From positions 29,450,001 to 29,514,000 of the forward strand of contig CM097888.1 in the NCBI GenBank assembly GCA_044892525.1: a stretch of DNA of 64,000 nucleotides, read 5' to 3'. A program made the position numbers and the translations under genes. The notes beneath the pieces are model-generated. The model saw only the letters and a list, made by a program, of their open reading frames with translations. It was not told where the DNA came from and made no database searches. Positions 36,296-42,079 of this stretch are shown here, one piece after another. Position 1 is the stretch's first letter, and every line of letters begins with the position of its first letter. The stretch is from Schmidtea polychroa (taxonomy: Eukaryota).

Positions 36296-36740
36296 AAGTC
36301 GGTATCCTCTGACTCCACGTGTCCTTTTAATCGTAAATAACAAAACAATAAACTATCCAAAGTATATTTGAATCAGAAATCTCTCACAATCCAATGATAC
36401 AATGAACGACAGAGTTTTACCAGTTTAATCGGTTATCCGCTCTTGCCCCTTGCTGAAATGCCGGTTTGCTTTGATTTCCCCATTCCTTATTTAGTCTTCG
36501 AAATCGGGATGACAAATGGTTATTGCCGAGCCCATCTCTCTCTTGACATTCGACTCTACATATCTGCTTCGGCTGTCACCAAGAATGGTCCAACGAACAA
36601 AGATAATTAATGGCCCACCCGGGCCTTTCTGCACGCACTATCTTTTTCTTGGTCTTCTTCAATTAATCATTGTGACACGATAATGGGCCCAAATCTTCCT
36701 TCTGTTTACTTTTCTTTTAGTTTACCCAACTCGGGATTTC
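36296..36740 (-). repeat. Repeat family X, copy 2
   Basis: See 30932-31900. Substitutions preserve one reading frame. Confidence 0.75.
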
Positions 36741-36866
36741 TTTGTACTAGCTAATTGTTGGTTTCTTAGGGGTGTGTCATTTTAAATTTTTAAATGCATT
36801 AGGGGTAATCATATATATTCACTTGACTCTTTCCTAAGCACCTCCATGACTATTGCAATTTAACCA

Positions 36867-37010
36867 TTTGTGTACCCATGGCGACGACCATGTTGGTACT
36901 GTACACAAAGGCGAAAAAACAATGAGCAGGTGAGCTCTATTGCTAAAACTACTCCCCATTGTATTTTCTTTTCGGGTTCTAGACTGCCGATAGAAGGTCT
37001 TACGTCATTA
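36867..37010 (+). ncRNA. Structured module (unclassified), copy at 36.9 kb
   Basis: TTTGTGTAC-C-CATGG[CGACGA]CCATG-TTGGTACT-GTACACAAA; GTGAGC at 36930; GCC[GATAGAA]GGT at 36985-36997. Confidence 0.55.
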
Positions 37011-37079
37011 TTCACTGTGTATGCTATTTTTGGATCGTTGTTGGTCCTCAATTACGGGTATTTCTAATTGTTCTCTTAT

Positions 37080-37290
37080 AAAATTTTGTGCAGGGATCCG
37101 CCCTTACTTTCCAGCTAATAATTATTGTTCTACACTTCCTACAATATCTAAATTATCCTTTGAAAAATTTGAGCAGGGATTGGCCCTTATTTTCAAGTTA
37201 ATCCACGCTTCCCATAATATTTAAGTTATACTTCAAAAAATTTGAGCAGGGATCTGCCTGTATTCTCAGTCCTAATCTACATTTGACCAC
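37080..37290. repeat. Three degenerate tandem units (73-83 bp)
   Basis: GCAGGGAT anchors at 37090, 37173 and 37246 with similar flanks. Confidence 0.7.
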
Positions 37291-37614
37291 GGTACTTCCA
37301 GCGATAGGACCCGTGAGGAAGCCCCCACATTCCGGCCCAATCCAGCTGCGCGATTGAAAAACCAGCATTCCCACCAGTCTGAGCATCCCGAAGGTACCTC
37401 AAACCATGATATGCTGAATCTCAATTCAGCGGTACTAACGTTCGTAATCAGTTAGTATAAAAATTGAACACAATAAAAATTATTATTTAATATCTGCAAC
37501 TAAATGAAATTTAACAATTAAAAGAAAATAACAAAAGAAAATTTAACTAAAAATTTTATTGCATATTAAATTTAATCATCTCGTAAAATTACTACAACAA
37601 TAAAAAGTAAATTA

Positions 37615-37765
37615 CCAAATCCACGTTGGCATAAAATCGAAAACTGAGAGCTTCACTGTCTACAACTAAATTTTGATGTTAGAGAAAAAGTAGTAGTTTT
37701 AAATGAATTTGTGATCAGTATTTATACTGATTTTTCATGCATTTGCTGCCACTCTATCCAATCAG
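37615..37765 (-). promoter_or_regulatory. CCAAT + TATA promoter, short leader and splice donor of the element family
   Basis: The minus strand has GATTGGATAGAGTGGCAGCAAATGC...AAAATCAGTATAAATA, identical to 50755-50809, then GCTCTCAGTTTTCG and a GTAA donor at 37615. Activity is not shown. Confidence 0.6.
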
Positions 37766-38811: not shown

Positions 38812-39050
38812 AGTGGTGGGTTACTGGTGGTTGAATATTTAAGTGCTGTTACCAGCGTAACCCAGAATACAACGTTGTTTTCCTCCTGGTACCCGTTGAG
38901 CAATCAACGTTGGTACTGTACCAAGGGGTTGAGTACTCGCAAAAAGTGAGCGCGTCAAGCACTGTAATTGTCGAGCACTCTATGGGTTCACGGACGCCGA
39001 TAGAAGGCACGTGTCCGATTTGTTTCGGTCCCTCATCGAGATTGTTTTTT
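38812..39050 (+). ncRNA. Structured module (unclassified), reference copy
   Basis: GGGTTAC...GTAACCC (38818-38863); TGGTAC-C-CGTTGA[GCAA]TCAACG-TTGGTACT-GTACCA; CTCGC[AAAAA]GTGAG; CGGAC-GCC[GATAGAA]GGC-ACGT-GTCCG. Confidence 0.6.
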
Positions 39051-39150
39051 CCCCAAACGCCTTTCTACCCATCCTCTTGTTTTAAACAAACGCAAAGTTC
39101 AATCACATACTCGTTAAACAACAAGAACTATTTATTAAATCACTACCATG

Positions 39151-39635
39151 TTACAAAGTTTGGTTACCCAGGAGGGTCGCACTCTCGAACGTCTCTCGGG
39201 GTTGTGGATTGGCTTCAGTCTCTTTCAACTTCTCCTGCTCGGCCAGCCAGGCCCTTTTCAATTTGTCGCGGGTATTCCGCCCGAGCCGTTTACGTTTCGG
39301 CTTGCTTGTCTGGGCTGGTGGGTATATTTTGGCTAACTCCACCTGAAGAGGCCGAATCTGCTCTTGGAGGGCGTCCTGGATGAGTTTTTCATTCAATTTG
39401 CTCTCGAGCGAGCGTACTCGTAGCCTCAACGCTCGAATCTCGAGTTGGTCTTGCTCCGCCTGGGTCTGGAGTTGCGAGATGTGGGTCGTCTGTTTCTTCA
39501 TCTCGGCTGGACTGAACCAAGTACCTTGGAGTTCTCGATACTTCAGCTTGAGTTTTTCGACCCGACCTCGGAGACCCTCGGATTGTTGCTGGGCCTGTTC
39601 ACGGTCCTTTCGTAGATTTTCAAGTAACTGGTACA
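39151..39635 (-). CDS. ORF1: coiled-coil protein with WFSPAEMK motif and basic C-terminus
   Basis: Open frame follows a CTCCTTCAG acceptor (39636), so an upstream exon is probably missing. Heptad-like composition, KPKRKR patch, AATAAA downstream on the minus strand (~39131). Homologs at 1.7, 54.4, 55.8 and 58.3 kb. Confidence 0.65.
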
Positions 39636-39949
39636 CTGAAGGAGAATAATAATAAATTCCATCGCACGCAACCAGGTGCGCAAAGTTGATTAGAGTACGT
39701 GCATGAAATTAATAAGTGGGTGATGAGAAAAGGGTCACCTCAATCATGGATACACCCCATTAGCTATAAAGTCCAAAATGTAATAGCAAAAAAAAATGAT
39801 TTAGTGCACTACTGAGATACACGATAGACTATATTGTCAAGATTTATTGAACACAAGAAAAAATACAATTCGTTATGCTACTACAAGGTAAAATATCACT
39901 GGATGAAATCAGTCAAAATCATTCCATTCAAGCCGCGATTGTCGATGAG

Positions 39950-40315
39950 TTAGGCCAGGTTCTTGCGGGGCCTTCCCCGTTTTCGTGGAGGGGTGTCGGT
40001 CTCCTCCAGCTCTTCGATAGTTACCCCCAGTGTTTCGGCTTTGAGTTGGAGCTCGAGTCTCCTCAGTCGTTTTTGGGCCTCCACCACCTCATCGGCCGCT
40101 CGATCGCGGGCTTCCCGGAGCACGTTGTTGGTGGGCTCTACTTTCACCCACGCCGGGGCATCGGGCTCTGGGCCGTTTCGGATAACCCGATTGGAGCAAT
40201 CCAGGTCCCGTCCCTGGCTCCATCTGTGAATATGACCCCATATATACTGGGTCCGGAGCCGCGTTATCATCTGGTCGTAATCTTCGTCACCGTTGGATTC
40301 GTCAGAGTAAGACAT
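39950..40315 (-). CDS. ORF2: small protein with C-terminal AT-hook-like RKRGRPRK
   Basis: ATG 1 nt after a TATTATAG acceptor; ITRLRTQYIWGHIHRW and KVEP shared with the 49.4 kb ORF; AATAAA downstream (~39843). Confidence 0.6.
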   Translation of the reverse strand: MSYSDESNGDEDYDQMITRLRTQYIWGHIHRWSQGRDLDCSNRVIRNGPEPDAPAWVKVEPTNNVLREARDRAADEVVEAQKRLRRLELQLKAETLGVTIEELEETDTPPRKRGRPRKNLA

Positions 40316-42079
40316 TCTATAATACAAATCTACGTTAGGTCATTTGGCACCGACTGAGGTGAGTCACAATATTTATGTTAGCTACCCGTCCCAACACGCT
40401 AATTCGCCTGCCCTGGTTCTGTATAGTGGGTTCAGCATCAATCGATGGAAACGAAGATAGATGGGCGGAAGTAGTGGGTGATATTAAGATATCACTAGCA
40501 TTTAACTTGTCAAACGCGAATGATCTAATTTGAACAGATGTCTCAATGTACGAAATTCCCCACATAATAACCAGGTCGCAAAACAAAACATCGGACCACG
40601 GAGTTCGTCATTAGAGCCTTGCATTCAAAGCTAATCGTCTTGATATATGAAGGCATTTAACGGAGTGGTTCGACTGGAAAATTCACTGCCGTTACTACTC
40701 AGAATCCTGAACGTATTTCCAATTTAACAGCCTAACATATTAATTTGGTAAAATTTACTCTTTAATTAAGTATTTTCTGAAATTACCTAATAGTTGACTG
40801 ATTAATTTGGTAAACTTTGCACTTAATTAAATACCTTCTGAAGTTGCTCAATAATTGACTTTGTTTAAGTTAATCATTTTAATTCAGGGTCATGTTTACT
40901 TTTAGCTGACGATTCAAGATTTAATATGCGAATTTTTATAATTTTTTGTTTTTAAATCAGACATTATGGTCAATACCACTTAATTCGGGCACACCGGGGC
41001 GATTGGTATTAGAGGCGAGCTTAGTTTCTCGTTTGCTTACCTCTCCCTCGGTTGTGTTCGTCATGTGTGGTATAATCTCCTAGTTTGGAAGTAATTTATG
41101 TACTGATTAATAAATTTTCATGCTCAGGTACATTCAGTGGGGATTCTTGTTCGAACGACGATGGACGATTCTAACTTGGAGATGTTGTCCTACGACTTAT
41201 TACTAGAAATTTTGCTCGGTGGCATACAACAAGTACACATTTAAAATTTGCTAATAATAAAGTTAAATATTTTCTTTTACTAATGCTTCTATGTTTTGTG
41301 TACAGTATACATTAATAATTTATAAAGTTGTTCTTTCACATAGTTCAGTAATCGCACTATTAGTTTCTATGCTTTTCAGGTGGTTCCATTTACCTCGATT
41401 GATCATCTCAAGTTGTCAAGGCAAGTTTTATCTAGCTCCTAGTTTCTGGGGAAGCTAAGTTACCTGCAATGTTCCCGTCCATTGATAACCTGGTATTAAA
41501 TTAAATGGGTATGTACATGTAGATATCTATATACGTCTGCACGTATTTCTATTCAAAGTCAATAACCCTAACCTTTTTTCGGGGGGATGTGTTACTAAAA
41601 ATAGATCTCCTTAGTTTTCGCCAATTTTATTGGAGGATAGGGTCCTTGAATCTAAATTTAGAGATAGGGGAATTCCAAAAATTAATACTTTTGTTTAGAG
41701 TTTCATGTTTATAAAATGACGATAATTATTTTAACAATATATGAATAATAATAATAAAATAGTAATAATAATAAGGACACTAATGCTAATAAGAATACTA
41801 CTACTACCACCATTAATGTTAAGATTAAGAATAATAATAATAATAATGTTGAATTTATATCCCTATAAGGCTATCACCGACATGAGGGGGGGTCATTCAA
41901 AAAAAAATTATAATTGGTATTTTTAGATATAATCCAAGTTAGGAGTATATTAAAGTAAGTTAAATTTTTATATTGTTGCAAACTATATTGTAAATTTGTG
42001 GTTTACATTTTAGGAGTCTAAGTTCACAATTCTTATCTCAGGATCAATTCCGATTTATATTTCTTCAAATAATTTTTTT

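Follow-up and report, generated by a model that had tools for sequence, protein, structure and literature searches.

The 64-kb stretch of DNA analysed here (the window) contains six copies of a structured non-coding module of about 210 nt and four copies of a small open reading frame, ORF1. They lie in units that carry a variable subset of the order ORF2, ORF1, structured module, variable spacer, promoter and leader intron, as follows (modules are given without strand).

150..2050, plus strand: unit 1, with AT-rich upstream region, leader, intron, an unrelated 74-aa ORF and a broken ORF1
36281..36742, minus strand: a separate repeat outside the unit, made up of a degenerate coding fragment bearing a GDS-type motif, and a short tail
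36793..37010: module A, second subfamily
37060..37450, minus strand: GC-rich exon-like stretch with three imperfect repeats of about 75 nt, between promoter B and module A (family D6)
37494..37615, minus strand: leader (5'UTR) intron of unit B, 122 nt, donor at 37615
37700..37830, minus strand: putative outward promoter of unit B, inverted CCAAT at 37758-37762, TATA at 37719-37726
37831..38813, minus strand: AT-rich spacer of unit B, GC 12-29% in 200-nt blocks
38814..39020: module B, core hairpins at about 38931-38980 and 38882-38928
39151..39635, minus strand: ORF1 exon of unit B, AATAAA at 39131-39136
39950..40315, minus strand: ORF2 of unit B, 121 aa with an AT-hook-like motif at the C terminus
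40386..40620, minus strand: putative GC-rich leader exon of unit B, upstream of ORF2
45359..46290, plus strand: unit C, module (45359-45577) without an upstream ORF, then a spacer homologous to that of B
about 49.4-51.1 kb, plus strand: unit D, with ORF2, module, short spacer, promoter, leader and intron, without ORF1
49446..50017, plus strand: ORF2 of unit D, first frame ending at 49742, then a basic frame
50275..50493: module D
50494..51077, plus strand: spacer, promoter, leader and intron of unit D, putative CCAAT at 50756-50760 and TATA at 50802-50809
54132..54240: module E, decayed, detected by a covariance model trained without it (18.3 bits, E=0.0036)
54796..55988, minus strand: unit F, ORF1 and module F (54796-55002)
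within 54796..55988, minus strand: ORF1 of unit F, frame lost near 55.66 kb; its basic segment lies in 55257-55619
57800..58490, minus strand: ORF1 copy G, stop at 58188-58190 where its relatives continue, basic segment downstream

A sequence-only reading had described the minus-strand order ORF2, ORF1, module, AT-rich spacer, promoter, leader and donor, and a mirrored plus-strand unit without ORF1 at 49.4-51.0 kb; both stand, the first with the coordinates above and the second with 164/205 identical positions in the module (z=75) and 98/124 between promoter B and 50690-50830 (z=28.8). That reading placed the architecture in 36296..40620, but the left end of this span (36296-36750) is a different repeat, which is identical to 31.2-31.6 kb at 279/323 positions and whose tail recurs at 30.9 and 12.1 kb; its coding fragment is by eye a candidate esterase-like sequence, for which Pfam and PDB gave no confirmation. 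The stretch at 37060..37450 has no Pfam match. ORF1 is indeed present at 1.7 kb (E=1.2e-9), though broken, but the 74-aa ORF at 1.1 kb taken to occupy the ORF2 position has no detectable similarity to ORF2. The module-ORF1 tandem at 54-56 kb retains its two modules and one significant ORF1, the second reaching only E=0.075. Modules 36793-37010 and 45359-45577, and the ORF1 at 58188-58490, are additions to what had been reported.

Loss of the upstream parts is graded: B has leader, ORF2 and ORF1, D has ORF2, F has ORF1 and C has none of them. Neighbours in the same orientation form the pairs B>A and F>E, but the 49% identity between modules A and B is too low for B>A to be a single tandem insertion event. 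Unit C is interrupted at a (TTAGGG)2 stretch (46305-46316) and a hAT relic, and the AT-rich upstream region of unit 1 is homologous to 43690-44250 (z=7.6). Unit 1 and copy G have ORF1 with no module downstream. Most copies are broken or partial and their flanking sequences are unrelated; neither target site duplications (TSDs) nor terminal inverted repeats were found at the units. These observations support an unclassified family of mobile sequences, dispersed, non-autonomous and built of recurring modules, with mostly decayed copies. We found no description of such an element in open-access text, and an exact-identity look-up of six window proteins found none of them present.

The module does not code for protein, and its structure is conserved. 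It had been read as an antisense gene, but stops occur in 29/30 frame-by-copy readings and only 12/56 pairwise indels are multiples of three, and the analogy with HBZ-like antisense ORFs is unsupported because the element is a structured non-coding one. Its copies are 41-76% identical to one another, and in the two irregular hairpins 25/35 pairs have changed on both sides, a level reached in 0/500 shuffles. The 3' three-way tail of module B (38814-38863) ends on the ORF strand in ACCCACCA. Among the Rfam 15 covariance models module B has no match, the best for module D is MALAT1 (E=5.9, outside the core), and the whole window at E<=5 gives two weak unrelated matches only. Hammerhead cores number 4 in the window against 3.9 expected, with none in the modules, and a search for further long-range or pseudoknot helices turned up a single candidate of 4 pairs, which did not outperform shuffles. 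Matches from a GTDB pattern scan were set aside as chance (34 against roughly 18 expected on our own estimate, the best 12.7 bits and none extending over the module), and readings as HDV-like, hairpin-ribozyme, group I/II, tRNA-like or spliced-leader RNA were unsupported when judged by eye against consensus features.

Which strand folds bears on a distinctly unlikely alternative, in which the fold acts on single-stranded DNA (as in a rolling-circle or Helitron-like element, a recombinase substrate or a DNA-virus remnant) and the genes are copied as DNA. It would account for the introns being kept and for the conserved bulges as possible extrahelical marks; it also agrees with the 138/170 shared pair cells that are Watson-Crick, with the lack of a clear excess of G-U over A-C (8:6 counting shared pairs, 12:15 counting their union), and with nearly equal folding energies of the two strands (-24.9 vs -25.9 kcal/mol). 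On the other hand, GNRA-type loops (GUAA, GAAA and GAAA in the B, D and C tails) lie on the ORF strand, as does a U-G pair in 3/5 copies, and on that strand the column-shuffle z is also stronger (-14.8 vs -8.9). The evidence leans toward folding of the ORF strand. The same alternative is further opposed by the lack of terminal inverted repeats, by the finding of no Rep-helicase or tyrosine recombinase among the scanned window ORFs (the unit termini not being defined), and by blank BFVD and PHROGs searches.

The ORF1 protein of unit B is predicted to form two long helices around a W-x-x-P kink and an Arg/Lys-rich helix, and its modelled structure (helices 2-41, 44-105 and 121-142; mean pLDDT 82.6, pTM 0.40) is that of a long, coiled-coil-like protein. 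The basic segment is present in 10/10 ORF1 sequences that extend far enough, and a composition of this kind suggests that the protein may bind RNA. Differences between ORF1 F and G fall 25/24/65 by codon position over 87 codons, a bias that shows purifying selection on the reading frame in the past. Fold searches with the model gave no match in PDB, none at E<=0.001 in BFVD, and in VIA a best Z of 6.8 among generic, uninformative coiled coils. Atlas placed P0007 among generic coiled-coil clusters, the top one being "zgc:113691" (0.95, 157/256 features), a lead only, on which open-access text yielded nothing. A single-sequence word search accepted 0/134 candidates and an alignment search 3/5013, one of them new; P0009, a bacterial S-layer coiled coil, was dropped as a relative.

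ORF1 has eight relatives elsewhere, and gene models join most of them to host genes of unrelated kinds. These fusions bear on the idea, which we consider very improbable, that the units belong to a family of orphan host genes that share a regulatory structure in the 3'UTR and spread through ordinary duplication. A putative Pol II promoter, introns, a poly(A) signal and the past selection on ORF1 would all suit such a family, but the relatives are spliced to six unrelated host domains (SNF, L21, GDC-P, CRAL-TRIO, CH and ABC), as dispersed insertions would give, modules E and F start at the point where a UMPS gene breaks off, and the broken copies and unrelated flanks also argue against it.

Of ORF2, a 20-aa motif (12/20 identical, E=2e-7) is the sole part shared by the B and D copies, and the likeness of the basic frame of ORF2 D to the C-terminal half of ORF2 B is not significant (E=0.094). 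ORF2 has no significant match in Pfam, PHROGs or Atlas, the AT-hook model reaching only E=0.51 on copy B. Its leader exon in unit B shows no homology to the leaders of other units, and is followed by a putative 69-nt intron (40385-40317) with GT/AG ends and a branch-like motif. The host is an invertebrate with an AT-rich genome and introns of about 45 nt; the named hits to its RPL36, in sponges and a mussel among others, reach at most 69%.

On the other side of the module, units B, C and D carry a block of the upstream type. Homology among them breaks off directly past the CCA tail (z of -0.9, -0.6 and -0.1, vs 75 for the module) and picks up again at some distance; the first ~480 nt of spacer 3' of module B are unique, the spacer middle (38000-38330) is common to unit C (z=9.3), and a 14-nt motif at 38267-38280 occurs 4 times in the window vs 0.23 expected. 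Promoter and leader intron are common to two units, B and D. The counterpart in D of the leader intron is 116 nt long (50919-51034), leader and intron together score z=5 against local-composition shuffles, and B/D homology ends just past the intron.

We find no reverse transcriptase (RT), integrase or recombinase belonging to these units, in agreement with the earlier reading. A Pfam scan of 347/352 stop-to-stop window ORFs of at least 48 aa gave no RT, integrase or recombinase, and the remaining 5, scanned from their ATG, comprise one LRR gene and pieces of MULE/hAT type. By eye, a candidate RT-like relic lies at 8.5-11.4 kb, but Pfam gave no confirmation; relics with frames below 48 aa were tested at 8.5-11.1 kb only. 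LINEs and SINEs have intron-less bodies, a poly(A) or short-repeat tail and TSDs, and the units retain introns and have no poly(A) after module or leader. A hammerhead in the pseudo-LTR (pLTR) is a feature of Penelope-like elements (PLEs), absent in Naiad and Chlamys; the units contain neither a hammerhead nor, in the Pfam scans of the window, a PLE-clade RT or GIY-YIG domain. Their motifs and order fit a pLTR, but the block is not at both ends of a unit and the tandem neighbours are divergent. Membership in the Penelope-like family is not borne out by these features, nor is membership in the LTR/ERV family by those that follow.

The units had been read as accessory or leader regions of a large retroelement or endogenous virus, or as a non-autonomous system; the non-autonomous mobile character holds, but no link to Burro/Gypsy or an endogenous virus was found. 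The retroelement idea survives only as a rival, the main one, in changed form, possible though somewhat unlikely: the units would be the 3' accessory block of a large LTR retrotransposon or endogenous retrovirus, with spliced regulator genes (a Rev/Rex-like ORF1, ORF2 as transactivator) and the module as an export or packaging element, followed by an LTR in which the spacer is U3, the promoter comes next and the leader is R-U5, gag-pol being lost or outside the window. Some retroviruses have export elements just inside a promoter-bearing terminal block, which is where the module lies in B, C and D; the modelled arginine-rich helix of ORF1 is one that we take to resemble the Rev motif, retained introns need an export solution, and the tail read on the other strand starts with TGG, like a primer-binding site. 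Against this, six modules are accompanied by no gag, pol or env relic in the scanned ORFs of 48 aa or more, no unit in the window has two copies of the terminal block, and paired LTRs with TG...CA and TSD were not found (old, decayed copies may have lost them). The module-spacer junction is C-rich with no polypurine tract (PPT) and is unconserved past the tail; the TGG-starting 11-mer, conserved in B, C and D, has its complement 40 nt away in cis, and ARAGORN found no host tRNA genes in the window. Fusions to Gag, RT or integrase occur in 0/9 ORF1 profile matches. A spliced helical export protein is known in an invertebrate LTR element (CERV of Cer1; PMC10309623), but it has 517 aa vs about 160 for ORF1. 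What the units have in common with Rev/RRE-type systems and CERV is retained introns and a small, spliced, predominantly helical protein that carries a basic segment and has a structured non-coding neighbour; they differ in having no gag-pol or paired LTRs, and no match in sequence or fold was found. Burro (PMC6431247), a giant Gypsy element with a ~5,000-aa polyprotein and LTR pairs, is similarly an invertebrate element with accessory ORFs, but no such polyprotein or LTR pairs were found in the window.

The reading that we tentatively prefer, at somewhat less than even probability, is a retroelement that is non-autonomous, retains its introns and works in the manner of Penelope-type units. 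The pLTRs of Penelope and Chlamys have a start site with a 5'UTR intron at their edge (PMC8557442), and PMC3846280 describes the unique captured spacer of Pen1_Av and the mobilisation of intron-containing DNA in trans by pLTRs. As in those accounts (PMC8557442, PMC3846280), the terminal block shared by B and D is bordered by a putative start site and a 5'UTR intron, and the units show retained introns, partial head-to-tail order with graded upstream loss, and a variable, unique spacer, the homology gap past the CCA tail resembling that of Pen1_Av; the selected ORF1 frame and its constant basic segment point the same way. The units differ from PLEs and pLTR-mobilised DNA in lacking RT, GIY-YIG and hammerhead and in having a larger, uncatalogued fold and two small ORFs of their own. 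The Penelope-type reading is weakened by the lack of a linked PLE enzyme, by chance-level hammerheads, missing TSDs, A/B divergence and strand ambiguity, by ORF1 without a downstream module in units 1 and G, and by the lack of telomeric repeats at modules. Terminons (PMC6431247, section 8) likewise string their units into chains, with coiled-coil ORFs in one orientation and a C-rich tract past a 3' fold, and here too there is an adjacent esterase-like fragment. Terminons also carry reverse-complement telomeric repeats after that fold and telomeric repeats at truncations. Unlike in terminons, the esterase-like candidate is a separate repeat, an Athena RT is missing, the fold is of a kind other than the hammerhead, and the tail has one TAACCC hexamer only, the two (TTAGGG)2 stretches of the window (41563 and 46305; 0.08 expected) adjoining no module. 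Retrozymes (10.64898/2026.07.22.740005) are also non-autonomous, with structured RNA and tandem copies, and are linked to PLEs, but are defined by a hammerhead, which the units lack; the units carry ORFs, introns and a putative Pol II promoter.

In such a Penelope-type element, the terminal block from module to leader intron would act as a pseudo-LTR, and in a head-to-tail array each unit would be transcribed from the promoter that closes the unit before it. The fold, sitting where PLEs carry the hammerhead, and the CCA-ended tail could be a cis signal that is recognised by an RT encoded elsewhere or that processes the RNA; ORF1, as a helical oligomer with an arginine-rich helix, may bind the fold and package or export the unspliced template, and ORF2 may be a small DNA-binding regulator. 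An unlikely possibility is a satellite-like class of animal mobile elements defined by a dedicated RNA-protein pair. A helical protein of Rev-like type and an uncatalogued multi-helix RNA, perhaps a priming structure ending in CCA or a new ribozyme that cleaves itself, would allow an intron-containing unit to be mobilised in trans and to build chains with no hammerhead, LTRs or enzyme.

The main finding is a non-coding fold that is carried by a repeat, covaries strongly and has no Rfam match, beside an orphan basic-helix protein. Its density, six copies in 64 kb, means that it could be a major repeat so far unannotated, and ORF1 is already contaminating host gene models in protein databases. 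Its size of ~210 nt allows direct probing, self-cleavage and ORF1-binding assays, and if the fold replaces the Penelope-type hammerhead, or is an invertebrate RRE, it would bear on how intron-containing retroelement RNA is copied or exported.

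Six copies of the module, the fold that follows the two small orphan frames ORF2 and ORF1 in the most complete unit, are present in the window:

36793-37010, module A
38814-39020, module B
45359-45577, module C
50275-50493, module D
54132-54240, module E
54796-55002, module F

A covariance model built from five of these, which are 41–76% identical to one another, recovers the sixth (E=0.0036) and gives no other match at E≤10; unfiltered scans of 15 kb in the neighbourhood of other ORF1 copies yielded no match with E under 0.19. Stop codons interrupt 29 of the 30 frame-by-copy readings, 12 of the 56 indels between module pairs keep the frame, and the differences between modules B and D (15/23/11 by codon position) are not clustered at one position, unlike those of ORF1. 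The module is thus non-coding, and it is structured. Its core consists of two irregular hairpins with conserved bulges, in which 85.7% of 175 cells pair (slid controls, 32–42%) and 25 of 35 pairs show changes on both sides, a value reached by none of 500 shuffles. Since the alignment tested is also the one that yielded the structure, these figures are biased in its favour, but against column-shuffled alignments the fold still scores z=-14.8. In modules B, C and D a three-way tail follows, which contains a GNRA loop and has the same 11-nt end, with CCA, in all three. No Rfam family matches the module, and no hammerhead core lies inside any copy; pattern matches in GTDB were discarded as chance.

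The sequence-only reading had called the module antisense. Against column-shuffled alignments the fold scores z=-14.8 on the strand that codes both ORFs vs -8.9 on the opposite strand, and the ORF strand is also favoured by its GNRA loops and by a U-G pair that three of five copies have. On the other hand, a second alignment gives energies of -24.9 vs -25.9 by strand, and G-U and A-C stand at 8:6 among the shared pairs, both of which speak against such a preference. The evidence points both ways, so "antisense" is unsupported, and we lean, no further than that, towards the ORF strand as the folded one. Because G-U pairs are not enriched, we retain the explanation that the fold acts on single-stranded DNA, although we consider it quite improbable.

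Self-comparison of the window bears out the order of parts that had been proposed at 37.4-40.6 kb, as well as its mirrored unit at 49.4-51.1 kb. Relative to shuffles that preserve local composition, units B and D are similar in the module (z=75), the promoter (z=29) and the leader with its intron (z=5), and the mid-spacers of B and C are also related (z=9). Both B and D have an inverted CCAAT box and a TATA box, followed by a leader intron (122 nt in B, 116 nt in D) directly past which their similarity stops. The first 150 nt past the module show no relation between any two of B, C and D (z from -0.9 to -0.1). A 14-nt motif common to the upstream regions of four units (560-573, 38267-38280, 43801-43814 and 45957-45970; 0.23 expected) is a possible factor-binding site. 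There are two (TTAGGG)2 stretches (0.08 expected), one at the unit C cut (46305-46316, plus strand) and one roughly 1 kb upstream of unit B (41563-41574, minus strand). A third promoter-like region, with CCAAT and TATA by eye, lies upstream of ORF1 copy G (59165-59470, minus strand) and has no detectable similarity to the B/D promoter.

An ORF1 profile searched against 1.84 billion representatives gave nine matches. We set one aside as a coiled coil from bacteria; the other eight have the family motif. Five of these, and one more relative from a separate alignment search, are gene models joined to unrelated host domains (P0008, P0010, P0011, P0012, P0014 and P0016), so the repeat contaminates annotations; fusion to Gag, RT or integrase was not seen among the relatives found. 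With the external sequences as its sole input, a profile finds four window copies among 2230 segments (E 1.6e-22 to 1.2e-9), a partly dependent test in that those sequences were first retrieved with the window copies. Copies F and G differ by 25/24/65 at the three codon positions, and this third-position excess marks ORF1 as a formerly selected gene. Today the copies at 1.7, 55.7 and 58.2 kb are broken, and a host gene family, which fits dispersed and broken copies poorly, is very improbable. The predicted ORF1 model has a W-x-x-P kink between two long helices, plus a basic helix, and fold searches with it returned generic coiled coils and nothing else. The basic segment is found in all ten sequences of sufficient length, and we take it to resemble the arginine-rich motif of Rev. 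The main rival, that the units are the 3' accessory part of an LTR element that encodes a Rev-like protein, has an invertebrate precedent in CERV of Cer1 (PMC10309623), but no gag-pol relics among the ORFs scanned, no paired LTRs and no PPT were found around the six modules, and we regard it as doubtful. The case for ORF2 is weaker than that for ORF1: B and D have a single 20-aa motif in common (E=2e-7), a Pfam AT-hook falls below threshold, and the ORF at 1.1 kb shows no similarity to it.

The surrounding DNA is animal and AT-rich (18–46% GC per kb), with host introns of about 45 nt and abundant hAT and MULE relics:

6126-6347, plus strand, host exon with a Ly6/uPAR domain
33.1-33.4 kb, host gene RPL36, whose named relatives reach 69% at most
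36281-36742, separate repeat, not part of the unit (further copies by similarity at 30.9-31.6 and 12.1 kb)
52850-54000, plus strand, host gene UMPS, ending within the decarboxylase domain directly before modules E and F
within the window, a host LRR gene

A motif search of the window turned up no matching UMPS exon further downstream. The separate repeat (spans 30850-31900, 36150-36750 and 12060-12220) has by eye a GDS-type, esterase-like motif at 36281-36742, a reading that no library searched confirmed; its tail reads R-T-R-G, presumably like the C-terminus of CR1/L2 ORF2. A repeat of about 300 nt (28672-28986 and 44600-44892; z=9.9), which contains a long, almost perfect palindrome between runs of T, we take to be Helentron/DINE-like. 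Tandem repeats occupy 42200-42770 and 40739-40860 (periods 129–147 nt and 61 nt). At 23411-23495, with MULE and hAT relics on either side, lies a long, perfect hairpin that is AT-rich; its weak MIR1120 match is probably a MITE. A badly decayed coding-like stretch (8500-11400, minus strand) looks by eye like Penelope RT plus GIY-YIG and has no Pfam support.

These units form a dispersed family that has no enzyme of its own. Its spliceosomal introns are retained, differing amounts of sequence are lost upstream of the module, and the 3' end bears an outward promoter; what lies past this anatomy we infer. Penelope and Chlamys begin transcription, and have a 5'UTR intron, at the boundary of the pLTR, the terminal block of these Penelope-like elements (PLEs), and form partial tandems, non-autonomous ones included (PMC8557442); pLTRs can mobilise intron-containing DNA in trans, and one family holds unique captured spacers (PMC3846280); Terminons have coiled-coil ORFs as well as a 3' fold with a C-rich tract after it (PMC6431247). 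On these likenesses we rank first, tentatively and at somewhat less than an even chance, a non-autonomous retroelement working like a PLE, in which the fold would be the cis signal and ORF1 might be its binder. Of the defining PLE features, RT/EN and the hammerhead were both sought and neither was found for these units, so we do not class the family as a PLE.

The mobile family is real and unclassified. Open-access literature text yielded no description of the element or its fold; the family may already exist as an "unknown repeat" entry, and a new class of element is unlikely. Its most valuable part is the covarying non-coding fold, which stands apart from known families.
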